Of a DNA stretch of 64,000 nucleotides, positions 1-47,945 are shown piece after piece. Numbering within the stretch: position 1 is the first letter of the stretch; every line of letters starts with the position of its first letter. The DNA is from an uncultured Candidatus Saccharibacteria bacterium (GTDB taxonomy: Bacteria > Patescibacteriota > Minisyncoccia > Phycocordibacterales > UBA12088). A model generated the notes under the pieces. That model saw nothing but the letters and a program-made list of their open reading frames with translations. It made no database searches and was not told the origin of the DNA. The DNA lies in contig CAYWMQ010000002.1 in the NCBI GenBank assembly GCA_964459635.1, positions 6,776 through 70,775 on the forward strand. The letters are read 5' to 3'. The position numbers and the translations under genes are program-made.

Positions 1-1060
1 TCGGATCAAAACTTGTGGTAAAGGCGTTCTCAACAGTGATCTCTCCCGCGCGAATGAGCTCTGTGAGCGATGCATTCATACTTATCATACCGTCCTGTGA
101 GCCGGTCTCGATCATGGTATTTATCTCGTGGGTACGTCTCTCGCGAATCATGTTGGCAACAGCTTTCGTGTTCACGAGAAGCTCGTACGCGGGCACAAGG
201 CCGCCTGCAATACGGGGAACCAGACGCATCGAGAATATGCCTGCAAGCGAACTTGCGAGCTGCACACGTATCTGATCTTGCTGGTAGCCGGGGAACGAGT
301 CAATGATACGGTCGATGGTCTGGGCCGCGTTATTGGTATGAAGTGTTGAAAATACGAGGTGGCCCGTTTCTGCGGCGGTCACCGCTGCGCCTATTGTTTC
401 GTTGCCACGCATCTCTCCAAGCATAATGACGTCAACGTCCTGACGAAAAGCACTGATAAGTGCGCTTTGGAAGTCCGCCGTGTCCAAGCGCACCTCTCGC
501 TGGTCGATGAGGCACTGTTTCGGGGTGAAAATGTACTCGATCGGATCCTCGATAGTCACAATATGCTCGGCGCGCGTTTGATTGATGTGTTCCACGAGTG
601 TGGCGAGCGTGGTGGACTTTCCCTGCCCCACAGGACCAACCACAAGGAAGAATCCCTGGTTGCGGTTGGCAAATTCAATAAGCTGCGGCGGTAGGCCGAG
701 CTCTTCAAGGGTCAAGATCTGATTGGGTATAAGGCGCATGGCGACCGATACCGCACCACGTTGGATAGAACCGTTGCCGCGAAAGCGAGCTTTTTTTGCG
801 GCATTATAGTAGCTGAAATCTATCTCTTGTGTCTCATCGAAACGCTTACGCTGTTCGGGGTTCAACATGAGCGCAAGCAGCGTGGCTGTCTCCTCCGGCG
901 TGAATTCGGGGTATTGGGTGAGAGGAATAAGCGAGCCCGATACGCGAATCATCGGCTTGTAGTACGCGTTGATGTGCAAGTCGCTCGCACGCTCATCCAT
1001 GAGAATTTGCACGAGCTCGTCCAGAAACTGTGCCTTCGCTGTGTGTTTCGCTTCTGTCAT
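1..1060 (-). CDS. pilT: Type IV pilus retraction ATPase PilT (3' end of gene runs off the window)
   Basis: Hand reverse translation gives MTEAKHTAKAQF...GPVGQGKSTTL...ETGHLVFSTLHTNNAAQTIDRIIDSF: Walker A, Asp box and His box of PilT/GspE-family ATPases. No minus-strand ORF is listed because the gene is truncated by the window edge. Confidence 0.8.
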   Translation of the reverse strand, partial: MTEAKHTAKAQFLDELVQILMDERASDLHINAYYKPMIRVSGSLIPLTQYPEFTPEETATLLALMLNPEQRKRFDETQEIDFSYYNAAKKARFRGNGSIQRGAVSVAMRLIPNQILTLEELGLPPQLIEFANRNQGFFLVVGPVGQGKSTTLATLVEHINQTRAEHIVTIEDPIEYIFTPKQCLIDQREVRLDTADFQSALISAFRQDVDVIMLGEMRGNETIGAAVTAAETGHLVFSTLHTNNAAQTIDRIIDSFPGYQQDQIRVQLASSLAGIFSMRLVPRIAGGLVPAYELLVNTKAVANMIRERRTHEINTMIETGSQDGMISMNASLTELIRAGEITVENAFTTSFDP

Positions 1061-5128: not shown

Positions 5129-6277
5129 CTACAGCCCGCGCAACGCAAGACCCGTCGCTACCGCAAAATCCGGCCCGGCTTCCTTAAGTACGTGCTCCAA
5201 GAATGCCGGGGTCTGCGTATGTGCGAACGGATCGGCGAGCTCGACCTCAAGCTCAAGCTGCGCCTGCACGAATTCGCGCACGCCTTTCATGGTGCTGCCG
5301 CCTCCTGTGAGGATGACCTTTGAAATGACCTTGTTGTGCGTTTTCTGGAAGTTTAGGAGCACTCGCCGGGCTTCTATCATTATGTGTTCCATGCTAAGCG
5401 TGGCCGCGTGCGAGACCATGGCAGAACGGCTCTGTTCGCTCAGACCCGTAACGAGGCCGTTCGCACGCTTCATTTCCTCAGCCTTTCCTACCGACAGGTG
5501 GCTTGAGTTGGCGAGTGCGAGTGTAATGTCCTGCGAGCCTTTGGATATCACGTGCGACGCAAGCACGATACCGAGACCGACCACGTACACCTTGCTCGTG
5601 GCTGCGCCGATGTCGATGATGGCAACGGGAGCCAGGCCGCGCTCGACGGTGCTGCGAATGGTGGAAAATATCTCTATCTCGTAGAAACTCGGAGCGAGAC
5701 CCGCAAGCTTAAGCGTATCGCTGTACTTCCGCAGGACTTCATTGTGAATGGCAACCACGAGTACGAGCTTTTTTTGGAGCGGCTGCTCTGCAGCTTCGCT
5801 CACCGACTGCGCCCCCTCAAAGAATTTCTGCTCGGATTCGGGCACAATAAAGTAATCAAGCTGCACCTCGGCGATAGGCACAGGGATATACTTGCGCGCC
5901 TCGATAGGTATCATTTGCGCAAGCTTTTGAGCCGAAACGGGCGGCATTTCGATAAGCTTCACAAGGCTTGCCGCAAACGGCACCGACGCGCCACAGCGTG
6001 TGGTGGTGACATTTGCCTCCTTCATGAGGCTCTTGAGCGCCTCGGCGAGCTTCTCGGGCGGAAGGTTGGTCGCCCGCCCCACCTCAAGGTCGTTGTACGG
6101 ACCGAGCGCTATCTCTCCATACGTCTCAAGCACGGCTACGCCCTTTTCATTGCGTACCTGTACGAGCTTAATGGCGGATGTGCCTATGTCGATGCCCAGC
6201 ATACTTGTGCTGCTCGCGGAAAGTATCTTACTCTGGAGTAGCTGTTTTGCTTGATCAAAGATCGACATACGTTCCAT
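5129..6277 (-). CDS. pilM: Type IV pilus assembly protein PilM (actin-like ATPase)
   Basis: LGIDIGTSAIKLVQV actin/FtsA-like N-terminus; the start was moved to the MERMSIFDQ Met at 6277. Confidence 0.75.
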   Translation of the reverse strand: MERMSIFDQAKQLLQSKILSASSTSMLGIDIGTSAIKLVQVRNEKGVAVLETYGEIALGPYNDLEVGRATNLPPEKLAEALKSLMKEANVTTTRCGASVPFAASLVKLIEMPPVSAQKLAQMIPIEARKYIPVPIAEVQLDYFIVPESEQKFFEGAQSVSEAAEQPLQKKLVLVVAIHNEVLRKYSDTLKLAGLAPSFYEIEIFSTIRSTVERGLAPVAIIDIGAATSKVYVVGLGIVLASHVISKGSQDITLALANSSHLSVGKAEEMKRANGLVTGLSEQSRSAMVSHAATLSMEHIMIEARRVLLNFQKTHNKVISKVILTGGGSTMKGVREFVQAQLELEVELADPFAHTQTPAFLEHVLKEAGPDFAVATGLALRGL

Positions 6278-15000: not shown

Positions 15001-15076
15001 GGTGCGCGTGCCAGGGCTCGAACCTGGGACCGCCGAGGTATAAGCTCGGAGCTACTACCAACTGAGCTACACGCGC
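15001..15076 (-). tRNA. tRNA with anticodon UAU (reads AUA; tRNA-Ile2-like)
   Basis: Hand-folded from the reverse complement: acceptor GCGCGTG/CACGCGC, anticodon stem CCGAG/CTCGG, loop CTTATAC, T-loop TTCGAGC, discriminator A. Confidence 0.7.
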
Positions 15077-29804: not shown

Positions 29805-29848
29805 ACTGTAGTGATACAAATGCGACTCCTCGTTACCCGATACCAATC

Positions 29849-29980
29849 AACGAATGTGTACTTGTCCCGCCGTAGCTCGTTTGCGAAGGGGGGGGCGAAT
29901 GCTGCGAATAGATCCACCTATCTTGCTCTGACGCTGTGATCCATTCGTTGCATTCGTACCGTACTCGTGTAATTCGTATT
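29849..29980. repeat. ACGAATG ... CATTCGT inverted heptad array in the rplX-rplN spacer (180-bp intergenic gap inside the spc cluster)
   Basis: caacgaatg, ggcgaatgctgcgaatag, then ccattcgttgcattcgtaccgtactcgtgtaattcgtattg. It also contains the 16-nt block cccgccgtagctcgt shared with 36517..36535. Confidence 0.65.
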
Positions 29981-32486: not shown

Positions 32487-32535
32487 GTGATGATGTATTC
32501 GCGGCATTCGTACTCATTCGCAGATTCGTATCGTG

Positions 32536-34209: not shown

Positions 34210-34893
34210 TTATTTAGCGGTGCGGGCGCGCTTTTCAAGCACTTCCACCGACTCTGCGGGCGATGCAATGATGAGGTACTTGTGGCGCAAGACTTCTACC
34301 GGATTGAGATTGCGTGCATCCTCAAGCATGATGTGGCCGAAGTTACGGAAGCTCTTCTTTGTTGCCTCGCCCGGCGCTGCGACCGCTACAAGGGCTGCAT
34401 TTTTGCGCTTGGTTGCAAGCGGCGCGAAACCGTCGACCTTCGCAAGCGCCATGAGCGTCTTATTCGCCTCGGCGGCCTTGGGCTCCGCAAATGCAAGCTC
34501 GTCCAGGAAGAGCACCTCGCCATCGGCAAGCTTGCGCGAAAGCACCGCATAGAGAGCCTGTACGCGCATCTTCTTGTTTATCTTCTGCGCGTATGAGCGC
34601 TCGTTGCGCGGGCCATGCGCCACGCCTCCCTTGGTCCAGATAGGGCTGCGGCGGCTGCCGTGGCGGGCGTTGCCCGTACCCTTCTGTTTCCATGGTTTCT
34701 TGCCCGTGCCGGACACTTCCGCGCGGTTCTTCGTGTGTGCGATGGGCGTACGAGCATTGGCCTGCATAGCGGTCACCACCTGGTGTACCAGATCTGCGTT
34801 CCACGCGGCACCGAATACAGCCTCGGGAAGATTGATCTCTCCCGCCTTAGTGCCTGCCGTGTTGTAGATAGTTGCTTTCATGGTGTGGGTCAC
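34210..34893 (-). CDS. rplD: 50S ribosomal protein L4
   Basis: 227 aa; L4 signature region. Confidence 0.9.
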   Translation of the reverse strand: MTHTMKATIYNTAGTKAGEINLPEAVFGAAWNADLVHQVVTAMQANARTPIAHTKNRAEVSGTGKKPWKQKGTGNARHGSRRSPIWTKGGVAHGPRNERSYAQKINKKMRVQALYAVLSRKLADGEVLFLDELAFAEPKAAEANKTLMALAKVDGFAPLATKRKNAALVAVAAPGEATKKSFRNFGHIMLEDARNLNPVEVLRHKYLIIASPAESVEVLEKRARTAK

Positions 34894-35016
34894 GATGCGA
34901 ATCTACGAATGGGTGCGAATGCTACGAATAAATGCTCTACCGGCGATACATTAAGAGTGTTGCATACGTTAGTAATTCATTCGCTGCATTCGTAACATTC
35001 GTTGATTAGTATCGTG
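34894..35016. repeat. Inverted array of ACGAATG / CATTCGT heptad-like repeats in the rplC-rplD spacer
   Basis: Four ACGAATG-type units face three to four CATTCGT units across a ~40-nt centre. It can fold as a long imperfect hairpin in the mRNA. Confidence 0.7.
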
Positions 35017-35625: not shown

Positions 35626-35676
35626 GACGCGATACGAATCAACGAATGGGTACGAATGCTACGAATGTGGTACGTA

Positions 35677-35891: not shown

Positions 35892-36143
35892 ATGATGGTA
35901 GTCCTATGGTTGGCGTTGGTCACTGTTGCTGGGACGGTCCTGGGCGCCTTCGTTACGGTGCCGGTGCTGCTCATCGTCACAGTGATTGCTATGTCCGTAG
36001 TGCTTTGGTGCTATCTCAAAAATCCTTCGGCCATTTACGGACCATCGGCGGCCGGCCTCATTGCTGGTATGTGGTTCATGTATTTCCTCACCACCCACGA
36101 TGCGGCAGCGCGAACGTTCGTCGACACGTACATCTTGCGGTAG
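35892..36143 (+). CDS. Small hydrophobic membrane protein (83 aa), hypothetical
   Basis: Strong SD TAGGAGGAC; two to three TM helices. Confidence 0.45.
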   Translation: MMVVLWLALVTVAGTVLGAFVTVPVLLIVTVIAMSVVLWCYLKNPSAIYGPSAAGLIAGMWFMYFLTTHDAAARTFVDTYILR

Positions 36144-36179
36144 ATCGAGCAAGCGAAAGAAGAAGGAGTAGGAGCGGCC

Positions 36180-36374
36180 ATGTTCATTTTGCGTAGCCTC
36201 GACAAGAACGGCAAGCGTGTATACCGCACACGCAACGGCGGTTGGAGCACGCATCGGAACGATGCGTGCAGATACGAATCCCACGAGTTTGCGCAACGCG
36301 TAGCTCGACGGACGACGCCGCCGGCGCGCAACGCGCGTGTTGAGATTGAGTCTGTGCGCGAGAAGGAAAAGTAA
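36180..36374 (+). CDS. Small basic hypothetical protein (64 aa)
   Basis: SD GAAGGAG upstream; a hairpin follows at 36431..36456. Confidence 0.35.
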   Translation: MFILRSLDKNGKRVYRTRNGGWSTHRNDACRYESHEFAQRVARRTTPPARNARVEIESVREKEK

Positions 36375-36674: not shown

Positions 36675-37664
36675 CTGTGAATTACGAAACTCCTCCCCAC
36701 CCCTTTGCACCATACACCCCAAACACACCCGTTAGGGTGTAGCACGTACGCTTGATTGTCACACACACGAAGGAAATTGATTGTGCCTACGCGAGCACGA
36801 ATGAAAGAAGTGCGTAGAGATAGTTTGCGAAGTACCCATTCACTGAGCGCGGAAGTGAGGTAACGAGACCGTGGAACAGCTTCAGGTTGCGGAAGTCGAA
36901 CTCGATGTCAAAGCGTTTCTTGTAGAGGTGGAGCTGCCAAGCCTCGGCGAGCTTCTTCATGTTTTTGTACGGCTTGATGAGCACCCACCGCCGGTCGTTG
37001 TTCATGTCGCGCTCAAGTTGCTTTGACACGTACCCCGCATCCGCAACGATGATGCCCTCGATGTATTCGTTGATCTTGCGGAAGATGTCGCGGTCATCCG
37101 CGTTGGCGGGCGTGAAGCGGAGCGCGAGGAGACGTCCCGCAGCATCCCGTGTCATGGTCATTTTAAGGCCGAAATAGAAGCCTTTTCCAGAGTGGCCCCA
37201 TGCGGCGAGTCCGGCCATGGTCTTGTGGTGTTTACCGTTCTTGGTGAGACACACGGGTATATCGGTCGCATCGGTGTACTTCACGATGTGCTGGTCCTTG
37301 TGCCCGAGCCGCATGAGGTATGCAAGGATCAGGAACACCAGACGGGCTGCACGATTGATCGCCTCCACAAACGTCTTGTACGAGCAAGGTATCGCTTCCT
37401 TGAAGTCGTCATATACGGACTTCTTAGTAGCGCGTGTTGACTGATGCCAGTACAGGCCCCAAATGACCGCGTCCAAGGGATTGATGGCTAATGGTCGACC
37501 CACCCTCTTTCCTTCGGGGAGGATGTGGAGTTTTTGTGCTATGTGTGTGACAATGTGCGTGAGGTTGTCCCATATCTTTGGGAACATACAATACAAGAGG
37601 CTCCATACGGAGCCTTTTGTATTGTATCGAAATGCAGTGCGGGAGGGAGTTTCGTAATTCACAG
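36675..37664. mobile_element. IS982-like insertion sequence (990 bp) with 24-bp imperfect terminal inverted repeats and a 7-bp TAAAAAA target-site duplication
   Basis: IRL ctgtgaattacgaaactcctcccc matches IRR (reverse complement ctgtgaattacgaaactccctccc). Direct repeats TAAAAAA at 36668..36674 and 37665..37671. A single DDE transposase ORF lies inside. Confidence 0.75.
36787..37587 (-). CDS. DDE transposase (IS4/IS5 superfamily, IS982-like)
   Basis: 267 aa from MFPKIWDNL; the length and single-ORF organisation are typical of IS982-family elements. The DDE catalytic triad was not identified. Confidence 0.7.
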   Translation of the reverse strand: MFPKIWDNLTHIVTHIAQKLHILPEGKRVGRPLAINPLDAVIWGLYWHQSTRATKKSVYDDFKEAIPCSYKTFVEAINRAARLVFLILAYLMRLGHKDQHIVKYTDATDIPVCLTKNGKHHKTMAGLAAWGHSGKGFYFGLKMTMTRDAAGRLLALRFTPANADDRDIFRKINEYIEGIIVADAGYVSKQLERDMNNDRRWVLIKPYKNMKKLAEAWQLHLYKKRFDIEFDFRNLKLFHGLVTSLPRSVNGYFANYLYALLSFVLA

Positions 37665-37681
37665 TAAAAAAGGCTACAACC

Positions 37682-37709
37682 AAAACGCCGGCCTTGCGGC
37701 CGGCGTTTT
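37682..37709 (-). terminator. Intrinsic terminator downstream of rpsJ
   Basis: aaaacgccggcc-ttgc-ggccggcgtttt hairpin. Confidence 0.7.
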
Positions 37710-38116: not shown

Positions 38117-39322
38117 TTAGGCGACGACCTTTGTTACGACACCTGCGCCAACGGTCTTGCCGCCTTCGCGAATAGCGAAACGCTGCTGTTCCTCAAGCGC
38201 GACAGGAGCCACGAGCTTCACCTTGAAGGTGACGGTGTCACCCGGCATCACCATTTCCACGCCCTCGGCGAGTGTCACCTCACCTGTCACGTCTGTCGTG
38301 CGCACGTAGAACTGGGGCTTGTAACCCGAGAAGAACGGCGTATGGCGGCCACCCTCTTCCTTCTTGAGGATGTATACCTCGGCCTCAAACTCGGTGTGCG
38401 GGGTCACGGAGCCTGTCTTTGCAAGCACCTGGCCGCGATGCACATCATCCTTCTTGGTGCCGCGTAGCAGCACGCCCGCGTTGTCGCCCGCGCGGCCCTC
38501 GTTGAGCTGCTTGTTGAACATTTCAATACCGGTCACCGTGGTCTTGGTGGTGTCCTTGATACCGACGATCTCCACTTCCTCTCCCACCTTCACGATACCG
38601 CGCTCGATGCGGCCCGTGACCACCGTACCGCGGCCTTCAATGGAGAATATGTCCTCGATAGGCATGAGGAAGGGCTTCTCCACATCGCGCACCGGCTCGG
38701 GAATGTAGGTGTCGAGCGTATCAATGAGCTCGATGATCTTCTTCGCCCACTCATCGTCCGCGCTCGTAGCCTCAAGCGCCTTAAGGCCGGAACCGCGAAT
38801 GATAGGCGCGTTCTTGCCGTCAAAGTTGTTCTTGTCGAGAAGCTCGCGGAGCTCTTCTTCAACGAGGTCGAGCATGTCGGGATCGTCCACCATGTCGCAC
38901 TTGTTGAGGAACACGATGATCTTCGGCACACCGACCTGGCGTGCAAGGAGTACGTGCTCACGAGTCTGCGGCATCGCGCCGTCCGTGGCCGCCACCACCA
39001 AGACCGCGCCGTCCATCTGGGCTGCGCCGGTGATCATGTTCTTAATGTAGTCGGCGTGGCCGGGCGCGTCGATGTGCGCGTAGTGCCTGTTCGGCGACTC
39101 GTACTCGCTGTGGTGGAGCGCAATGGTAATACCGCGCGCCTTTTCCTCGGGCGCGTTGTCGATACCGTCAACGCCCTCAATGCGTGCGTTGTAGCCCTTG
39201 TCTTTCGCAAGGTTACCCAGCACATGGAGGATCGCTGCGGTCGTGGTCGTCTTGCCGTGGTCAACGTGGCCGATGGTGCCTACGTTCACGTGCGGCTTGG
39301 ACCGATCGAATGCTTCTGCCAT
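38117..39322 (-). CDS. tuf: Elongation factor Tu
   Basis: [18 protein letters not shown] motifs; start chosen at [11 protein letters not shown] with a GGAAGGAG SD. Confidence 0.95.
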
Positions 39323-39514
39323 GGTCGTTCGCGTTATGCTCCTTCCGAAGTTCAGGGCGCGAGAACGGTGCCTCAACACCGGAAGGTGCGGATAATAATT
39401 CGCCCGGGTGTCGCTGCCTGCCGGGTACGTTCGCGTACGCGCTCGATCCGGCTGTGCTCCGCGCCTTCCGCAGAGAGCACAATGACAAAAAACACACGCA
39501 GTGCGGTACACGGC

Positions 39515-39542
39515 ATAATACCGCACAGGCGCTGCAAGTCAA
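39515..39542 (-). promoter_or_regulatory. Candidate tuf promoter (minus-sense TTGACT-16-TATTAT)
   Basis: Seen in the reverse complement of the tuf leader, about 190 nt upstream of the start codon. Confidence 0.5.
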
Positions 39543-39595
39543 GGAAAAGTGAAGTGAGAAGTGGGCAGTGGTTAGTGAAAAGTGAAAAGACTCAT
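39541..39595. repeat. Seven to eight tandem heptad repeats (plus strand AAGTGAn; mRNA sense CACTTnn) directly upstream of the tuf -35
   Basis: gtgaagtgagaagtgggcagtggttagtgaaaagtgaaaag, read directly. Confidence 0.65.
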
Positions 39596-39747: not shown

Positions 39748-41274
39748 CTATAGGCACCGTTCGCACATATCTGCAACGGGGCTTCGCTCCCCATGCTGTA
39801 AGATGACGTGCCCGTAGAGGGGGTTGCCATACAGTTTGACCGCTACGTGGGCGAGACCGCAGTTGCTTGGCGAGAGATATTTATTGTCCAACTGAGCGAA
39901 GTTGCCCAGGACGACAATTTTAGATCCCAGTCCAATGCGGGTTCCAATGGTCTTCGCCTGATGTGGCGTGAGGTTTTGTACCTCATCCACAGTCACAAAC
40001 GCCCGTGTATAGCTGCGCCCACGCACAAACGCGAATAAGTTGACCTCGAATAGGCCCGCCAGCGTCCGCTCCATTTGTTGCTGTTGGGCGCGCTTGGTGT
40101 TTTCAGTACCGGCGGTGGGTCCGTCACTCTTGCCACGACGCCCGTTCCCTTGCCTATGTACCTGCTCCGTCAAGGCTTCTGCTATGATCTCAAGGTTGTC
40201 GTACAGCGCCTTGTGCCACGGTGTGCCCTTCCCAGGCTCATCCCCCGGAAGTGCACCCGGATCAGTATCAACCGGGACCATGGCACGAGTGACAACAGCC
40301 TTGCGATACCGTCCGACAGCATGCGGTGGCTTAGACGAATGCATATCAAAGGCGACGTTCTGCGCGACCGCGGCGGCTGCCGTCATGAGGCTTTTACCTG
40401 TCCCCGCCCTTCCTATTAAGGTTACGAACGGGATGGTGGGGTCCATGAGCAAGTTCAACGCAGCTATTTGCTCGGCACTTCTTGCACAAATACCGGCCAC
40501 GTTGTTCTGCGGAAGCGAGTAGTCTACGGACCGCTCCAGAAGAACGTGGTCGTCGTGGATTTGACGCACAATGAAGTGCCGGCCGTCGCCGTATAGGAAG
40601 TTGTTAATCTGCACAGGCGCAGGAAGTGCTAGCTCATCCGTCTTGAGCCGAAAAAGCTTGCGTGGGTTTCCTTCACCACCCGCAGCCACCAGATGCTCCC
40701 AATACGCACTGTGTAACTTCACAAGGCCGGTCTCAAGCACGTCCGTGTCTTTGATTACCATGTCGCTCTGGTAATCCTCGACATGCACCCCCAGCGCATC
40801 TGCTTGGATGCGCATATTATTATCGTTTGATACCAGCACCACATCGCGGTACGCGTGGCCCAGGTACTCATTCGACAGAAGCTTTGCTCCGGCGATGATC
40901 CTGTCGTCTGCACTTGCTTCGTCAAGCGCCAGCATGCGGACCATCTCACACACGGGAGCGGTGATGATAATCAACTGACTCTCCGTGGAAGAGTCTCCCC
41001 CGTTGGTCGGGTACCGCTTCCCAATGTTGGGCAGTACCACGGTGCCCTTCGCTTGGGCGTTGCGCCCGGTAATGTTCGTAATAATACGCGACACCTCGCG
41101 CGCATTCTGCGCAACATCGCTATCCCCAAGCTTGACCCCCGTTTTTTTTCGATCAAGCTCTTTAAGAACCGTGATCGAAATGGCCACGTCGTGAGGAGCA
41201 AACCTGTATATGGCCTGTGGATCGTGCAAAAGCACGCTCGTATCCAACACGAAAAGCTTCTTCGCGACGTCCAT
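39748..41274 (-). CDS. PhoH-like ATPase with N-terminal PIN domain (YlaK-like)
   Basis: N-terminal FVLDTSVLLHDP PIN motif; central GRAGTGKS Walker A of PhoH-family ATPases. Confidence 0.8.
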   Translation of the reverse strand: MDVAKKLFVLDTSVLLHDPQAIYRFAPHDVAISITVLKELDRKKTGVKLGDSDVAQNAREVSRIITNITGRNAQAKGTVVLPNIGKRYPTNGGDSSTESQLIIITAPVCEMVRMLALDEASADDRIIAGAKLLSNEYLGHAYRDVVLVSNDNNMRIQADALGVHVEDYQSDMVIKDTDVLETGLVKLHSAYWEHLVAAGGEGNPRKLFRLKTDELALPAPVQINNFLYGDGRHFIVRQIHDDHVLLERSVDYSLPQNNVAGICARSAEQIAALNLLMDPTIPFVTLIGRAGTGKSLMTAAAAVAQNVAFDMHSSKPPHAVGRYRKAVVTRAMVPVDTDPGALPGDEPGKGTPWHKALYDNLEIIAEALTEQVHRQGNGRRGKSDGPTAGTENTKRAQQQQMERTLAGLFEVNLFAFVRGRSYTRAFVTVDEVQNLTPHQAKTIGTRIGLGSKIVVLGNFAQLDNKYLSPSNCGLAHVAVKLYGNPLYGHVILQHGERSPVADMCERCL

Positions 41275-41416: not shown

Positions 41417-43567
41417 CTATACGCCGCGCGCCTTCACGATATCCGCCGCAACGTTCGGCGGTACGACCGCATAGTGGTCGAACTCCATGGTCATTTGGCC
41501 GCGACCTTCCGTCATAGAGCGCAGTGTCGTTGTGTAGCCGAACATTTCCGACAGCGGCACCTTTGCGTGCACCGCCACCGCCATACCGCGCGGCTCCTGG
41601 CCCTCTATCTGCCCGCGCTTGCTCGCGAGGTGGCCGTTGATGTCGCCCATGAACTTATCGGGCACCACCACCTCGACCTTCATAATGGGCTCAAGGAGCA
41701 CGGCGCCCGCTTTCTTCGCGGCATCCTGGAATGCCTGACTGCCCGCTATTTTGAATGCTATTTCGCTTGAGTCCACCTCGTGGTACGAACCGTCGTACAG
41801 GTCGCAGGAAATGTCCACCATCTTGTAGCCCGCCACAACACCTCTATCCATCGCCTCGCGCACGCCCTTCTGCACCGCAGGGATGTACTCGTTGGGGATG
41901 ACACCGCCCTTGATGTTGTTGATAAACTCGAAGTGGTCTTCGCGTGTCGTGTTGTTCGGTATCTTGGCTCCCTCTTCAATGGCCACGAGCGGTTTGAGGC
42001 GCAGCTTCACATGGCCATACTGTCCGCGGCCGCCCGTCTGCTTGATGTACTTACACTCCGCCTCCGCCTCGCGCTGTATGGTCTCACGGTACGCCACCTG
42101 CGGCCGGCCTATGTTTGCTTCCACCTTGAACTCGCGCTTCATGCGGTCCACGAGTATTTCAAGGTGGAGCTCACCCATGCCCGAGATGATGGTTTCGCCG
42201 GTTTCTTCGTCCGAGGTGATGCGGAATGTCGGGTCTTCGTCGGCAAGCTTCTTAAGCGCAAGACCCATCTTCTCTTGGTCCGCCTTTGTTTTCGGCTCAA
42301 TGCGCACCGACACGACCGGCTCAGGGAAGACTATCTGCTCCAGCACGATAGGGTTTCCCTCGTCGCAGAGCGTGTGGCTCGTCTTCGTATCCTTGAGGCC
42401 CACTGCAGCGGCGATCTCTCCCGCAAAGACCTGCTTCACTTCCTCGCGCTTGTCGGCCTGCAGGCGCACGATACGGCCCAGGCGCTCCTTGTTGCCGGTC
42501 GTGCTGTTGTAGATGTAGGAGCCCGCCTCTACGGAGCCCGAGTACACGCGGAAGAAGGTGAGGCTGCCCACGAACGGGTCGGTCTGGATCTTGAACGCAA
42601 GCGCACAGAAAGGCTCGTCGTCGGTCGCGTGGCGCTCTATCTCGTCGCCCGTACGCGGGTCGGTGCCCTTCACGGCGGGTAGGTCGAGCGGCGAGGGCAG
42701 GTAGTCCACCACGCCGTCAAGTACGAGCTGCACGCCCTTGTTCTTGAGCGCAGAGCCCGTGTACACGGGGAAGATCTCGTTCTTGATGACCGCACTGCGC
42801 AGTATGCGCTGCAGCTCCTCTACAGACGGCTCGGTACCCTCAAAAAATGCGTTCATCGCCGCTTCGTCGTGCTCCACGATGCGCTCCACGAGCTCTGCGC
42901 GATACTTCTCCACATCCGCCTTGAGCGCCTCGGGAATATCAGCCGTCTTGCGCACCTCGTTGCCCATATTGCCCTCAAAGTACACCGCCTGCCGGGTGAG
43001 CAGGTCTACCACTCCCTCATGCGCGTCCTCTTCGCCTATCGGGATCTGCATGCGCACCGCTTTCTTCGAGAGCCGGTCCAAAATGGACGCGTACGAACGC
43101 TCGAACGATGCGCCGGTGCGGTCGAGCTTGTTGATGAAACAAATGCGCGGCACATTTGCCTCGTCGGCGTAGCGCCAGTTTGTCTCGCTCTGCGGCTCCA
43201 CACCCGCCACACCGTCAAAGACGACGACCGCACCGTCGAGGACGCGCATGGAGCGCTTCACCTCAGCGGTAAAGTCGATGTGTCCCGGTGTGTCGATGAT
43301 GTTGAAACGGCTCTTTTTGGCCTGGTCTTTCGCATCCTCGCCCGTCTTTGTCCAGAAGCACGTAATGGCGGCGGAGGTGATGGTAATGCCGCGCTCACGC
43401 TCCTGCTCCATCCAGTCGGTCACGGTCTCTCCCTCGTGCACCTCACCTATTTTGTGGCTCATGCCCGTGTAGAAGAGCACACGCTCACTCGTGGTGGTTT
43501 TGCCGGCATCGATGTGAGCGATGATGCCAAAGTTACGGACGCGCTCCAGGGGATAATCACGACTCAT
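41417..43567 (-). CDS. fusA: Elongation factor G
   Basis: MSRDYPLERVRNFGIIAHIDAGKTT start chosen; GTPase and domain IV/V sequences. Confidence 0.95.
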   Translation of the reverse strand: MSRDYPLERVRNFGIIAHIDAGKTTTSERVLFYTGMSHKIGEVHEGETVTDWMEQERERGITITSAAITCFWTKTGEDAKDQAKKSRFNIIDTPGHIDFTAEVKRSMRVLDGAVVVFDGVAGVEPQSETNWRYADEANVPRICFINKLDRTGASFERSYASILDRLSKKAVRMQIPIGEEDAHEGVVDLLTRQAVYFEGNMGNEVRKTADIPEALKADVEKYRAELVERIVEHDEAAMNAFFEGTEPSVEELQRILRSAVIKNEIFPVYTGSALKNKGVQLVLDGVVDYLPSPLDLPAVKGTDPRTGDEIERHATDDEPFCALAFKIQTDPFVGSLTFFRVYSGSVEAGSYIYNSTTGNKERLGRIVRLQADKREEVKQVFAGEIAAAVGLKDTKTSHTLCDEGNPIVLEQIVFPEPVVSVRIEPKTKADQEKMGLALKKLADEDPTFRITSDEETGETIISGMGELHLEILVDRMKREFKVEANIGRPQVAYRETIQREAEAECKYIKQTGGRGQYGHVKLRLKPLVAIEEGAKIPNNTTREDHFEFINNIKGGVIPNEYIPAVQKGVREAMDRGVVAGYKMVDISCDLYDGSYHEVDSSEIAFKIAGSQAFQDAAKKAGAVLLEPIMKVEVVVPDKFMGDINGHLASKRGQIEGQEPRGMAVAVHAKVPLSEMFGYTTTLRSMTEGRGQMTMEFDHYAVVPPNVAADIVKARGV

Positions 43568-43741
43568 ATGACAGGATGCTAATTTTACTAATGACGTACG
43601 AATGCAACGAATAATTGACCCGTACGGTATGAATAAAAATCCGCGCAACGCGGTAGGTGACGACACTATACCGTGCGTTGACGGAATACTCAAGAGGTGA
43701 TTAGGTGTGGGCAGACGCAACAGCTGGGAAGGACGTGCGTA

Positions 43742-44233
43742 ATGAACGTAATCTGTAGGGGCATCTTAACGCGCTGGCCTGTCGTCAAAACCAGAATCTA
43801 CGACGACCATGAGAACGGCATAATTTTTGCGCAGAACGACCCTGAATTACTCAAGTTCGTGGCAACAAGAAAAATGACGCAAATCGTCGCGCAATTGCTT
43901 GGCCTGCGACTCTATGCGGGCTCTGACGACACACGTGTGGATTGGACCGACCGGTACGCAATAGAAGTGCCCATCAGTACCTCGGGTATGGAAACGCGTG
44001 AGCCTGAGCGGTTTGCTCTAGTTGTACCGAACTATGATGCTCGTATTGAAACCTCGGAGACCATTGTCCGCGTGCCCATTGACGAAATCGATTCTACAGA
44101 CTTGCCGGCTGTCACACAGGCGATTTGTGACGCGGTTCAAAAGGCACGGGAACCGCACGAAGCACGAGCAAAAATATACGAAGCACGAGCAAAAATATAT
44201 CGTGTGGTTGAGGAACTCTTTGCATCTACCTAG
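43742..44233 (+). CDS. Hypothetical protein (164 aa) in lower-GC insert
   Basis: ORF carrying an internal 21-bp tandem duplication (44158..44199) that encodes EARAKIYEARAKIY; intrinsic terminator at 44266..44297. Confidence 0.4.
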   Translation: MNVICRGILTRWPVVKTRIYDDHENGIIFAQNDPELLKFVATRKMTQIVAQLLGLRLYAGSDDTRVDWTDRYAIEVPISTSGMETREPERFALVVPNYDARIETSETIVRVPIDEIDSTDLPAVTQAICDAVQKAREPHEARAKIYEARAKIYRVVEELFAST

Positions 44234-44487
44234 TCCGTTGCTAGATTCGACCACCTGATTTAAGAAGCGGAGCCGCACAGCAGCTCCGCTTTTTTTGGCG
44301 ACCCACAGCAAAGAAGTTCCGTGGAACAAAGAAGCGATGTGTTGGGATAAGCGTATGTTGGATTGGGGTGAGTGAGGGTGACAACGACCGCGTACACGCG
44401 AGCACGTGCGGCGAATTGAACGAACAACCGTTGACGCTGCGCCTATACGCAGATAGGCTCAAAATAGTCACAGGGAGCACGTATGCA

Positions 44488-44697
44488 ATGTGTTGTAACT
44501 CGTCACTTTTCGGACTCGGCTTTTGGGCGATCGGACGGTTTCCCACGGACACAGACGCACGCGGCACATTTTGGATGTCAGGCGGATACACCTTTGCGGT
44601 GCGACCCGATGGAATACGCATGCAGGCCAACGGCAACCGCTCCTGTGAACTCATGGGTTTGGGCTATGTGGAGCGTGAATTCAATCGTGCGGCATAG
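44488..44697 (+). CDS. Small hypothetical protein (about 69 aa; start uncertain)
   Basis: ORF ends 5 nt before a strong terminator (44703..44728). An overlapping alternative frame exists, so reading-frame choice is uncertain. Confidence 0.3.
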   Translation: MCCNSSLFGLGFWAIGRFPTDTDARGTFWMSGGYTFAVRPDGIRMQANGNRSCELMGLGYVEREFNRAA

Positions 44698-44807
44698 TGT
44701 CACGCGGCGCCTCGGCGCCGCTTTTTATATTTGACTTTTCTTCAGAGAAGTTGTATCATGAATTAGGCACACAAAACATACACGCAGTGGAAGTGGGAGC
44801 ACACACG

Positions 44808-45299
44808 ATGGAAGTTTTCGTTCGGGAAACCGGCAAAAAGCCGGTCATTGCTACGCTTGAGGGACAGTCTCTCAAGTACACATCGTCAGATGGTGCTACT
44901 CGCAGAGTTGAGGTCGCTGGCGAGGCGATTGTGGGGCTGAAGCGTTTGTCCGAACTTGGCAGCTTATATCCCGCCTCCCGTGATCTTATTCTCGTCGTCG
45001 ATCGCGCAGACGAGCCCGTCACCCATGTGCAGCCTGAAATATGGCTGATGGCATCAGAAACGCAGGTGCACATGCACTTTGCCTCATTGCCGGCGTGGTC
45101 CTTGCACTGGTACGGTGGCGAACGCACGCAGGAACAAGAACTGTGGCATCTTGCCGACACCTTAGCCGAAGGGGCATTAGATTTTGCGTCTGCTATTGCG
45201 ATGCTCGACGTACTCTGTGCGAACCTTCGCACACGTGCCCATGAGGTGCTGGTGTCTAAATGCCAGAAATTAGAACGGGGCGAAAACACAGCTGACTAA
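44808..45299 (+). CDS. Hypothetical protein (163 aa) in lower-GC insert
   Basis: SD GGAAGTGGGAG upstream of MEVFVRETG; terminator at 45331..45361. Confidence 0.4.
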   Translation: MEVFVRETGKKPVIATLEGQSLKYTSSDGATRRVEVAGEAIVGLKRLSELGSLYPASRDLILVVDRADEPVTHVQPEIWLMASETQVHMHFASLPAWSLHWYGGERTQEQELWHLADTLAEGALDFASAIAMLDVLCANLRTRAHEVLVSKCQKLERGENTAD

Positions 45300-45630
45300 G
45301 TATTACGTAGCAGATAAGCAAACGGTTGGACGCGGCACCGAAGTGCCGCGTTTCTTTTTTTTACTGCAACAGAAAAGGCGCTCCAAGCGCTGTCTCCGCG
45401 GTAATCCGCGTACAATCCGCGTTGCACCTGCGTCCCGTCCGCGACCACGCAAAGTGCGTATCCCACACCAGTTTTGTGGATGGGACGGCGGCAGCGCACT
45501 CGCCAAACTACGTAAGGCTCGGCCTATTCCGGCTCTGCGCTGCAAGACATGAACATGCGCTTGTGGTGCACTGGCTAAAGTAATGGCTACAGCGGCAAAA
45601 CTGATGCAGGACGCTGCACATGCTAGCTAA

Positions 45631-45660
45631 AAATAAAACCCTGTCGGGGTTCTATTTTTA
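45631..45660. terminator. Bidirectional intrinsic terminator at the end of the rpsL-rpsG transcript
   Basis: aaccc-tgtc-ggggtt hairpin flanked by A/T runs on both strands. Confidence 0.65.
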
Positions 45661-46128
45661 CCAAGCGAAGTGCGCGAATGCTCTGTTGGCCTCGGCCATC
45701 TTGTGTACGTTTTCGCGCTTCTTAATAGCCTCGCCTTCATTCTTGGCTGCCGCCACTATTTCTTGTGCAAGAAACTTCGACGCGGGGCCACCGCTCTTTG
45801 AGCGGGCTGCAAGGAGGATCCAGCGCATCGCGAGCGCCTGGCGACGCTCAGGGCGTACCTCACGCGGCACTTGGTAGTTGGCGCCTCCGACACGGCGGCT
45901 GCGCACCTCTACCGTAGGACCTACGTTCCGGATAGCATCCTCGAATATTGCGAGTGGGTCTTCCGTTTCAGCTATCTTCTTTATGTCTTCAAATGCATCG
46001 TACACCACCTTGCGCGCGGTCTCTTTTTTTCCGTCGAGCATGACGCAATTGATAAACTTCGAAACACGCTCGCTCTTGTAGCGCACATCCGGAGCAATGC
46101 TGAGTTTTTTCTTGATGGGTCGACGCAT
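45658..46128 (-). CDS. rpsG: 30S ribosomal protein S7
   Basis: 156 aa, S7 signature. Confidence 0.9.
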   Translation of the reverse strand: MRRPIKKKLSIAPDVRYKSERVSKFINCVMLDGKKETARKVVYDAFEDIKKIAETEDPLAIFEDAIRNVGPTVEVRSRRVGGANYQVPREVRPERRQALAMRWILLAARSKSGGPASKFLAQEIVAAAKNEGEAIKKRENVHKMAEANRAFAHFAW

Positions 46129-46174
46129 ATCTCGATACTAATCTACGAATTTCTACGAATACTGCGAATTAATG

Positions 46175-46591
46175 CTACTTTGCCGCCTTCGGGCGCTTTG
46201 CACCGTACATGGAGCGGCTCTTGCGGCGCTTGTCCACACCGGCGGCATCGAGCTTACCGCGCACCACCGTGTAGCGGATGTTGACGTCCTTCACACGGCC
46301 GCCGCGGATGAGCACCACCGAGTGCTCCTGCAAGTTGTGTCCTTCGCCGGGAATATACGCTGATACTTCCATGCCGTTACTGAGGCGCACGCGGGCGTAC
46401 TTACGTATAGCGGAGTTAGGCTTGCGGGGCGTCTTGGTCGTCACCTTCACACACACACCACGCTTGAAAGGCGCCGCGTAGTAGGTCGGCTTGTTTTTGA
46501 GCACGTTGAAACCGCGACCGAGTGCGGGCACTTTCGACTTCCGTGTCCTGTCCTGACGGGGCTTGCGTACAAGCTGGTTTATCGTTGCCAT
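46175..46591 (-). CDS. rpsL: 30S ribosomal protein S12
   Basis: [12 protein letters not shown]...PKKPNSA.RK..RV.L. Confidence 0.95.
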
Positions 46592-46689: not shown

Positions 46690-47496
46690 TTACCGCATGC
46701 GGCCTCCCTTCCGAGCACTGCGCCATAGGTGGTCAAACTGTTGCGCCATAATCTCTGCCATATCCGCGCTTTCAACCGTCATGGCGTAATGCTCGCGATC
46801 AGAAGCTATGAACGTGACCTTTGTACCGTATACGCCGTACCCCATGGCCGCGGTGAGCTCGGGGGGCGCGATGCGAACTTCGCGCAGCGCCTCAGCATCT
46901 AAACGACGCGAGAGACGCGGGTCAGCAGGCTTCGGCATGTGCGATGCGGGCCATAGTACGCGAATGGAAATGTTCCTGCGTATGCGTTCCGACCGGTACT
47001 CCTCAAATATTTCGCCCGGAATAGCGTGGCGCATACTCCTCACCGGCCAGTACCAGCGCACAAGCGTGCCTGCTCGCAGTATGCCGGCAAAAACAGCACG
47101 GTATGCGCGCACACTGTCGGCAATGAAAAAACGGGGCGTGGCATGTGGCGTGGGCACCGCGCGCGTCAGTAACTCACCGAGCCCACGCGTAGCTGCAGCA
47201 AGGCTGCGCTGCCGCTCATCCGCCCAGCCACGTATTGCGGCTTGGTCCGCCGCAACGAACACCGGAGCTTCCCCTGTGTGTGCCTTGAGCACCAAACCCT
47301 GCTCTTCGAGCCAACGCAGGTGGTCGTACACGCTGGTACGGGGCATGTTGAGCATACGGGCTATATGCAGCGCGGTTGTGCCATTTTCACTGTGCAAAAT
47401 GGCACCAAATACGCGCGTCGCATGCCAGCTGCAGCCGAGCGGCGCCATATGCTCATGCAACGCGGCCACAAAGTCGGTGTCGCTTTTTGTCGACAT
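46690..47496 (-). CDS. TrmB-family HTH transcriptional regulator
   Basis: Winged-helix N-terminus TALHIARMLNMPRTSVYDHLRWLEEQGLV followed by a TrmB-like C-terminal domain. Confidence 0.55.
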   Translation of the reverse strand: MSTKSDTDFVAALHEHMAPLGCSWHATRVFGAILHSENGTTALHIARMLNMPRTSVYDHLRWLEEQGLVLKAHTGEAPVFVAADQAAIRGWADERQRSLAAATRGLGELLTRAVPTPHATPRFFIADSVRAYRAVFAGILRAGTLVRWYWPVRSMRHAIPGEIFEEYRSERIRRNISIRVLWPASHMPKPADPRLSRRLDAEALREVRIAPPELTAAMGYGVYGTKVTFIASDREHYAMTVESADMAEIMAQQFDHLWRSARKGGRMR

Positions 47497-47558
47497 ATGT
47501 ACAGTATAGCGACTCGCGCGTACGGTGCAAAGAGACACGTACATGGAGGGTCAGTACG

Positions 47559-47945
47559 ATGGACGACACCTATGATGCCTTTGTTACGCTCATCAAAGAT
47601 ATCGTCGCTAACGGAGACGCCAGCAAACTGGGACGGGAGCTCGGTGTAAACACGAGCACCGTGCTCCGCTGGGCGCGCGGCGAAAGCCGGCCATCCCGCG
47701 GAGTCGTTTTTCCTATCATGGAATTTGCCTCAGCACTTCAACAGGGCGATGCCGTCGTGAAGGCCGATTTTGTGCGCGCTATGGCTTGGGTTGTAGAACA
47801 CGGGCACGCGGGCGTGCTCGCGCGAGCATTTGGTGTAAACCCAAGCACGGTCGCGCGGTGGGCAACAGACAAAAATCTTCCTCATCCGGCCGTTTGGCCC
47901 ATACTCTGCAAATGGGTCAAAACGGTAGGGGAAGCACGCGGGTAG
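47559..47945 (+). CDS. Tandem-HTH DNA-binding protein (hypothetical regulator)
   Basis: Two internal repeats LG(V/N)...STV.RWA; SD GGAGGG upstream; divergent from the TrmB gene. Confidence 0.4.
   Translation: MDDTYDAFVTLIKDIVANGDASKLGRELGVNTSTVLRWARGESRPSRGVVFPIMEFASALQQGDAVVKADFVRAMAWVVEHGHAGVLARAFGVNPSTVARWATDKNLPHPAVWPILCKWVKTVGEARG

Follow-up and report, generated by a model that had tools for sequence, protein, structure and literature searches.

A 2.1-kb gap between rpsG and fusA in a Patescibacteria genome probably holds a lineage-specific accessory islet of three autonomous gene cassettes

Main

The str operon of Escherichia coli and most bacteria runs rpsL-rpsG-fusA-tuf, an order widely relied on as a sign of conserved synteny. 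In a 64,000-nucleotide stretch of contig CAYWMQ010000002.1 (positions 6,776 to 70,775; GenBank assembly GCA_964459635.1, an uncultured Candidatus Saccharibacteria bacterium), hereafter the window, rpsG and fusA are separated by 2,090 bp carrying three small open reading frames (ORFs) on the opposite strand. What does this gap contain, and does its presence mean that a conserved operon has been broken by foreign DNA, as a preliminary description made from the sequence alone had proposed? The gap is probably best explained as a lineage-specific accessory islet of three autonomous cassettes, ORF1, ORF2 and ORF3, lying at a boundary that tolerates insertions, where one transcription unit ends and another, independent one begins. 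The nearest named relatives of the window's elongation factor G (EF-G) are metagenome-assembled genomes (MAGs) of Paceibacteria/Parcubacteria, within the Patescibacteria or candidate phyla radiation (CPR).

Layout and integrity of the gap

The genes rpsL, rpsG, fusA, tuf and rpsJ keep the canonical order on a single strand. Positions are counted from the first nucleotide of the window.

46175–46591, minus strand: rpsL
45658–46128, minus strand: rpsG, encoding ribosomal protein S7 (the public gene call matches Pfam Ribosomal_S7); final member of the rpsL-rpsG unit
43568–45657: rpsG-fusA spacer
41417–43567, minus strand: fusA, encoding EF-G (716 aa)
39748–41274, minus strand: PIN-PhoH gene
38117–39322, minus strand: tuf, followed by rpsJ on the same strand

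Public gene calls in seven independent assemblies agree on the three plus-strand ORFs of 163, 69 and 163 aa, with the boundaries that were described before. The interruption between rpsG and fusA is likewise real, but fusA and tuf are also apart, with the PIN-PhoH gene between them. The entire gap and both of its junctions are identical in six independent Logan assemblies from different runs, a seventh, shorter contig matches the rpsG-proximal 605 bp at 100% identity, and no polymorphism was found in the gap among the seven assemblies. An assembly or binning chimera, for which the MAG origin alone speaks, can be set aside almost entirely in view of this agreement and of the comparable gaps present in relatives.

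The gap has a G+C content of 52.6%, against 57.3% for the window, and 2.3% of equal-sized windows are this low. Its lower G+C content therefore stands, though not at the value of about 50% first given, and the idea of a 2.1-kb insert does not. Not all of the 2.1 kb can be insert, because both ends hold conserved elements: the fusA-side end (43568 to ~43700) is the conserved promoter and leader of fusA itself, and the rpsG-side end (45444–45657) comprises the conserved rpsG terminator and a conserved non-coding block. No second copy of any gap segment was found elsewhere in the 64-kb window.

Three predicted self-contained cassettes

Each ORF lies within a predicted unit of its own, with a promoter-like motif, a Shine–Dalgarno (SD) sequence and an intrinsic terminator.

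43678–44294, plus strand: ORF1 cassette; promoter-like TTGACG-17-TTAGGT (TG-extended) at 43678–43706; SD GGAAGGA at ~43727–43733
43742–44233, plus strand: ORF1 coding sequence, 163 aa, pI 5.1; terminator at 44262–44294 (7-bp stem, T7)
44431–44726, plus strand: ORF2 cassette; promoter-like TTGACG-17-TAGGCT at 44431–44459; SD GGGAG at 44473–44477
44488–44697, plus strand: ORF2 coding sequence, 69 aa; terminator at 44704–44721 with T-run
44731–45363, plus strand: ORF3 cassette; promoter-like TTGACT-17-TATCAT at 44731–44759; SD GGGAG at 44795–44799
44808–45299, plus strand: ORF3 coding sequence, 163 aa, pI 5.2; terminator at 45328–45353 with T-run

Motifs of the form TTGAC[GT]-N17-T[AT]nnnT occur exactly three times in the gap (43678, 44431 and 44731), one per ORF and 35–49 nt upstream of it. 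The chance expectation is 0.04 per gap, none of 2,000 shuffles reached three, and the whole 64 kb holds nine such motifs, both strands counted. The SD-like sequence precedes each ATG by 8–10 nt. A terminator scan and the inverted repeats bear out the previously noted terminators, one after each ORF, together with a bidirectional hairpin after rpsG.

The SD sequences set the three ORFs apart from the genes around them. Of the 23 genes called around the locus, five have an SD core, and three of these are ORF1–3, leaving 2 of the remaining 20 (Fisher p ~0.006 by our own calculation). No SD was found for any recognisable core gene, including rpsL, rpsG, fusA, tuf, rpsJ and the genes for L28 and the M50 peptidase, and SDs are also present on gap ORFs of relatives. 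The genes with an SD are mostly lineage-specific ones. Several first-of-unit genes, such as those for rpsL (46591) and malic enzyme (54024), carry a −10-like box (TATACT, TACAAT or TACACT) 3–7 nt before the ATG, an arrangement that points to leaderless mRNAs for several core genes.

The codon scores of ORF1–3 are positive in the annotated frame only (+0.08 to +0.13). Most other genes of the window score 0.25–0.58, and the PIN-PhoH gene (0.13) and a TrmB-like gene (0.17) come close to the three ORFs. G+C at third codon positions (GC3) is 0.52–0.60 in ORF1–3 compared with 0.59–0.79 in neighbouring genes. The three proteins have no obvious membrane or signal segment, and those of ORF1 and ORF3 are acidic (pI ~5.1–5.2).

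A variable boundary between predicted separate transcription units

The rpsG or fusA neighbourhoods of 12 close relatives, obtained by exact protein look-up, were compared together with loci of 80 GTDB species, obtained by a scan for rpsG; gap lengths were compiled for 78 non-redundant Paceibacteria loci. Across these loci the rpsG-fusA gap ranges from 10 to 4,929 bp and is at least 500 bp in 41% (<200 bp in 30 loci, 200–500 bp in 16, 500–1,000 bp in 11, 1–2 kb in 15 and >2 kb in 6). The rpsL-rpsG spacer, taken as a control, has a median of 21 bp and exceeds 200 bp in 2 of 84 cases. The fusA-tuf spacer is long and variable too. Among close relatives of the window, the following rpsG-fusA distances were found.

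L009: 142 bp
L011: 161 bp
L097: 312 bp
L012: 673 bp
L095: 999 bp
L008: 1,119 bp
L013: 1,952 bp

The synteny comparison called for earlier thus places the two genes 142–161 bp apart in the nearest relatives, L009 and L011; long variable gaps are common elsewhere. In one sub-lineage of close relatives fusA lies away from rpsG altogether, divergent and beside infC-rpmI-rplT, at these positions.

L099: 5001
L101: 5001
L103: 673
L104: 1785

The cargo of the gap is unrelated between lineages. ORF6N proteins occupy it in 7 loci; other contents are small YtxH-like proteins, a group II intron reverse transcriptase (RT), ABC substrate-binding proteins, typA, a GIY-YIG protein and many ORFans. Three examples follow; these names, and that of the ORF6N-like cargo generally, come from reading the sequences by eye rather than from a profile search.

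L026, 9408–10517, minus strand: group II intron-type RT
L013, 6554–7036, minus strand: stand-alone ORF similar to the RNA polymerase alpha C-terminal domain
L057, 6581–7114: ORF6N-like protein, recurrent in seven loci

Transcription signals at the two ends of the gap are conserved.

45622–45666, both strands: predicted bidirectional intrinsic terminator closing rpsG; inverted repeat, with a terminator-scan match at 45637–45651
43631–43693, minus strand: predicted fusA promoter and leader; TTGAGT-17-TATAGT at 43693–43665, hairpin at 43653–43641, T-run

The fusA promoter stands back to back with the promoter-like motif of ORF1. Upstream of fusA in nine relatives, TTG...N17...TATAGT is invariant, and a short G+C hairpin and a T-run come next. 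Pairing in the stem is kept while its sequence varies (GCGCG/CGCGC, CCGCG/CGCGG, AAGCC/GGCTT and others), and the leader region of the window is 86–87% identical to those of L095 and L097 over 71–77 nt. The leader hairpin could attenuate transcription close to the promoter or stabilise the 5′ end of the EF-G mRNA. The arrangement of promoter (TTGnnn-N17-TATAGT) and hairpin, with the hairpin ~10–25 nt after the promoter, was seen in L008, L009, L011, L012, L014, L016, L018–L020, L095 and L097.

The rpsG terminator is conserved in L008 and L012 and would stop plus-strand transcription too. Because this terminator and the fusA promoter are both conserved, rpsL-rpsG and fusA are predicted to be separate units in this clade. 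Judged by these signals, the str 'operon' here is several transcription units, so that no real operon has been split.

The rpsG-fusA junction is variable in ~60% of Paceibacteria species, and we take it to be a clade-wide hotspot of gene gain and loss, at which a split is ordinary. With gaps of at least 500 bp so frequent and fusA under its own conserved promoter, the insertion loses the unusual character first ascribed to it. A literature search of open-access papers found no earlier description of this junction as a hotspot.

ORF3 is long resident and fast-evolving

ORF3 matched itself alone when 5.8 billion protein clusters were searched through a word index. One homologue emerged when 1.84 billion representatives were searched in full with HMMER: P0125, a protein of 179 aa with 42% identity to ORF3 (E 2e-19). 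Its gene occupies the same position on contig L093, convergent on an rpsG gene whose S7 product is 95.5% identical in amino acids to that of the window. It has its own signals (TTGACT-16-TATGAT, a strong SD and a terminator) in the same layout as those of ORF3. Between the two genes the nonsynonymous divergence (pN) is 0.38 and the ratio of nonsynonymous to synonymous rates (omega) is ~0.27–0.34, compared with an omega of 0.008 for rpsG; synonymous sites between the window and L093 are saturated (rpsG pS 0.74, four-fold identity 0.43). On this comparison ORF3 is a genuine protein gene, long kept at this site and very fast-evolving. Its protein changes about ten times as fast as S7, and the gene already occupied the site when the lineages of the window and of L093 parted.

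One part of ORF3 is conserved at the nucleotide level.

45228–45320 (L093 1348–1430), plus strand: conserved block at the ORF3 3′ end and 3′ untranslated region, spanning the stop codon

Identity to L093 reaches 89% over a 64-nt stretch that takes in the final ~40 nt of ORF3, and is ~80% across the 3′ region. The remaining ORF3 DNA is barely alignable to L093, and four-fold sites are saturated; the constraint on the 3′ block stands out as an anomaly at the nucleotide level.

Directly beside P0125, L093 carries a fragment of an IS481-family transposase (2–571, minus strand; NCBIfam E 3e-12). Because the contig end cuts the gene short, this match does not reach the curated cut-off. A eukaryotic tenascin-like protein also came up as a candidate homologue of ORF3 and was rejected: each of its FN3 repeats matches residues 11–39, a short motif inflated by eight repeats.

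ORF1 and ORF2 and the case against the islet

For ORF1, the word-indexed search of 5.8 billion cluster representatives returned the self match alone. Both ORF1 and ORF2 form singleton clusters in an exact look-up among ~15 billion proteins; ORF2 has no second cluster member there and was not put through the homology search. ORF1 has G+C contents of 0.58/0.41/0.52 at the three codon positions and contains a perfect 21-bp tandem duplication, noticed previously and here located at 44157–44198, which is in frame and doubles the peptide EARAKIY. ORF2 scores +0.13 in its frame, and its transcript folds less stably than shuffled sequences do (z +2.45), in which it resembles an mRNA; its coding status is nevertheless the least certain of the three. 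Despite their equal length, ORF1 and ORF3 proved unrelated when compared as possible paralogues, and ORF1 shows no relationship to the ORFs of ~160 aa that take up comparable places in L095 and L013.

ORF1 and ORF2 might then be non-functional, either young proto-genes or decayed remnants lying open by chance in an expanded intergenic region. Their singleton status and the self-only search result for ORF1 fit this, as do their low codon scores (0.12–0.13 against 0.25–0.58 for most genes tested), the recent duplication, which suggests slack constraint, the near-equality of G+C at first and second codon positions (GC1 and GC2) in ORF2, and a confidence score (pLDDT) of 35 for the single-sequence AlphaFold2 model of ORF1. 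Yet each ORF comes with a rare consensus-like promoter motif, an SD at the right distance and a strong terminator, and no frame other than the annotated one gives a positive codon score. The duplication preserves the frame, the ORF2 transcript is unstructured and mRNA-like, and selection is demonstrable on the third cassette, ORF3. We consider the non-functional explanation unlikely, though the most serious competitor of an accessory islet.

Several of these points, and some others, weigh against the islet itself. The GC1 and GC2 values of ORF2 are atypical, the ORF1 model is poor, and no homologue from which selection could be gauged was found for ORF1 (homology search) or ORF2 (exact look-up). 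The AlphaFold2 model of ORF3, built from a two-sequence alignment, reaches pLDDT 49; a Foldseek search of the Protein Data Bank (PDB) with it gave no match at E≤0.001 and TM≤0.3, which the poor model makes uninformative. The promoters and terminators are motif-level calls from sequence. As to the mechanism of insertion, neither a transposase or integrase gene within the gap nor flanking direct or inverted repeats beyond the hairpins were found, and with no transposase or integrase and no terminal inverted repeats or target-site duplication the gap does not qualify as an insertion sequence, miniature inverted-repeat transposable element or integrative element. Finally, 'recently acquired foreign cargo' misdescribes ORF3, because that gene is old at the site. 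What holds of the accessory-cargo view is that the genes are lineage-specific, with atypical GC3 and translation signals; what falls is recent arrival, at least for ORF3.

Searches for a function

As the preliminary description had remarked, the proteins belong to no recognisable family. Searches of ORF1–3 against Pfam, PHROGs, PADLOC and NCBIfam gave no usable or meaningful match, and those of ORF1 and ORF3 against PDB sequences nothing usable. In PADLOC-DB 2.0, no family was matched at E≤1 by ORF1–3 or the antisense ORF. No match to ORF1 or ORF3 was found by tblastn in 50,697 phage records, and none of the gap ORFs of 41 larger-gap loci resembles ORF1–3. Remote homology and structure prediction thus yielded the single ORF3 homologue, models of ORF1 and ORF3 that are too poor to use, and no function.

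These results bear on the proposal that the three genes form one functional module whose parts act together in anti-phage defence, toxin–antitoxin addiction or something similar. The genes are small, adjacent, on the same strand, atypical in composition and fast-evolving, and the junction elsewhere sometimes holds mobile or phage-related genes (ORF6N, group II intron RT, GIY-YIG). A module is nonetheless improbable. Besides the lack of any database or phage-record match, no toxin or antitoxin domain was detected with Pfam, NCBIfam or PADLOC, and a strong terminator and a new promoter-like motif stand between every pair of ORFs, which is not the layout of an operon. The phyletic patterns of the three genes also differ, and in L093 the IS481 fragment occupies the place of ORF2, on a 2.3-kb contig that ends 0.85 kb upstream of P0125.

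Still less credible is a role as ribosome- or translation-associated factors sited for co-regulation with rpsG and fusA. Position alone suggests it, with the ORF1 promoter back to back with that of fusA. The proteins are absent from the nearest relatives, whose translation genes are intact (L009, L011, L012, L008 and L095), unrelated cargo occupies the same junction elsewhere, and the genes, read from the opposite strand, bring signals of their own. For ORF3, moreover, omega is ~0.3 and protein identity 42%, against 95.5% identity of S7 in the same comparison. The three genes were not found across the lineage, nor were housekeeping roles found for them. The accessory islet accordingly remains the reading that we prefer to either function proposed at the outset.

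A conserved non-coding block 3′ of rpsG

A further conserved stretch of the gap lies outside the ORFs.

45440–45627, minus strand: conserved non-coding block of ~190 nt, directly 3′ of the rpsG terminator; candidate structured RNA
45368–45390, minus strand: terminator-like hairpin with U-rich tail, ~50 nt past the conserved block

The 214 bp that follow the rpsG stop codon (45444–45657) are 85% identical to L008 (5882–6093), whereas in the same genome comparison nucleotide identity is 77% for fusA, 73.5% for rpsG and 82% for tuf, with 34–39% at four-fold sites. The block is the longest and best-conserved non-coding stretch of the 16-kb comparison with L008. It is judged non-coding because its translated identity (70–74%) is below its nucleotide identity and shows no frame preference.

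Folding favours the rpsG strand. The alifold energy is −73 kcal/mol for the minus strand and −51 kcal/mol for the plus strand, and with the terminator included the z-scores are −2.6 and −1.6. The minus-strand fold has 50 predicted pairs, all standard in both sequences, with eight one-sided changes of the G-U type and one double change; as the fold was derived from the same two sequences that were scored, this is weak support. The minimum free energy structure of the minus strand has a long closing helix and an internal helix in both copies (z −0.9 and −2.5, two sequences only). L008 has a different hairpin with a T-rich tail at the equivalent distance (6153–6170), so that both blocks are followed by such a hairpin 50–60 nt on, the two being unrelated in sequence.

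We regard the block as a candidate RNA, probably structured and encoded on the rpsG strand; it would either be joined to the rpsL-rpsG transcript or come directly after it. The small RNA (sRNA) suggested earlier for 45362–45630 is to that extent upheld, in that 45444–45630 is strongly conserved, non-coding and better folded on the rpsG strand, with partial support overall. It is possible that the window and L008 share the block through recent lateral exchange. No additional copy turned up when 959 kb of related loci were scanned with a covariance model of the block, and an exact 20-mer search found one chance site, within a coding region (L094), over JGI metagenome contigs and none in viral contigs.

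Among known regulatory RNAs of ~200 nt, 6S RNA resembles the block in length (~190 nt) and in strong conservation without coding signal. The predicted fold of the block, with a long closing helix, an open centre and an internal helix, may be comparable to the rod of ~180–200 nt with a large central bubble that is typical of 6S. The block differs in its bubble proportions, in its place directly after a terminator and in being known from two copies, and no promoter was identified for it. An Rfam cmscan of 43500–45800 at E≤10 gave no match of the block to any model, 6S included, and two chance sRNA matches elsewhere.

Other features of the ribosomal cluster

Further genes interrupt the same cluster. 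A DDE transposase gene (36787–37683) follows rpsJ and, with a 130-aa ORFan (35904–36296), lies between rpsJ and rplC; a helix–turn–helix (HTH) gene and a TrmB-like regulator (46690–47945) lie between the M50 peptidase gene and rpsL. Compared with L008, L009, L011 and L012, the HTH/TrmB-like pair, the PIN-PhoH gene, the DDE transposase gene and the 130-aa ORFan represent insertions at unit boundaries that are particular to this lineage. Upstream of tuf, two short non-coding blocks (39479–39547 and 39323–39390, minus strand) are conserved with L008 (81% over 70 nt) and are presumably the tuf promoter or leader.

The 26-nt motif TCGTAnnnATTCGTnGATTnGTATCG occurs five times in the window, with none expected in shuffles.

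46133–46158, minus strand
35630–35655, minus strand
34893–34918, minus strand
29838–29863, minus strand
32508–32533, plus strand

All copies but the one at 29838–29863 abut or sit just upstream of the start of rpsG, rplC, rplD or rplV, one of them inverted. The motif was not found in related loci at up to four mismatches and is a genome-specific short dispersed element of intercistronic spacers. The window also encodes a tRNA-Ile with anticodon TAT (15001–15076, minus strand), an uncommon bacterial means of reading AUA.

Discussion

The proposed islet would sit between the conserved bidirectional terminator that ends rpsL-rpsG and fusA, which has its own conserved promoter and leader. Each cassette would consist of a promoter, an SD, a gene for a small cytoplasmic ORFan protein and an intrinsic terminator. 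The junction may tolerate insertions because DNA placed between a terminator and the next promoter would have no polar effect on the translation genes. Genes would arrive and vanish by illegitimate or insertion-sequence-assisted recombination, and their own signals would drive expression whatever the neighbours do. The products would be dispensable accessory proteins of fast turnover, most plausibly concerned with conflict or host interaction and not with translation.

In such independence the cassettes would act like phage 'morons', which Hendrix, Juhala and colleagues reportedly described in 2000 as autonomous promoter–gene–terminator units between conserved phage genes. ORF1–3 share with morons a self-contained organization at the motif level, a position between genes of a conserved cluster and a composition unlike that of their neighbours. 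They differ in lying within a bacterial ribosomal gene cluster, flanked by rpsG and fusA with no phage genes or PHROG matches nearby, in standing three in a row and, for ORF3 at least, in vertical inheritance over a long time. The moron is the closest functional analogy, but membership of that class fails for want of a phage context.

Chromosomal hotspots and islets, in which genes are gained and lost between conserved core genes, offer a second comparison. The gap shares with them the same flanking core genes across species, variable and unrelated content and occasional mobile genes (IS481, group II intron RT), and is unlike the usual case in lying inside the str operon region, in spanning only 2 kb and in the absence of an integrase, tRNA or repeats. 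Relative to the canonical str operon, the window has at least three predicted units (rpsL-rpsG, fusA and tuf-rpsJ), with accessory genes at both boundaries.

A broader proposal, which we advance only tentatively, is that the boundaries of ribosomal units in Paceibacteria (rpsG-fusA and fusA-tuf) might be safe harbours in which new genes settle time and again as self-sufficient, SD-led cassettes among core genes that are SD-less or leaderless, and that the harbour described here might also host a new structured RNA of ~190 nt, at the 3′ end of the rpsL-rpsG transcript and more constrained in nucleotide sequence than the ribosomal protein genes.

The finding leaves what is known of translation or defence as it was. 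Three features most deserve attention: the conserved block that resembles an RNA, the way SD-led cassettes contrast with core genes that have no SD, and the leader hairpin conserved upstream of fusA. The block 3′ of rpsG raises the question of a new regulatory RNA, and SD-led genes in an SD-poor genome that of whether an SD may mark recent arrivals. ORFan cassettes with strong signals of their own raise the further question of whether they are a route by which the streamlined genomes of episymbionts try new genes. An assumption is also corrected: in a large class of the CPR, the str order appears to represent separately transcribed units with hotspots of gene turnover between them.

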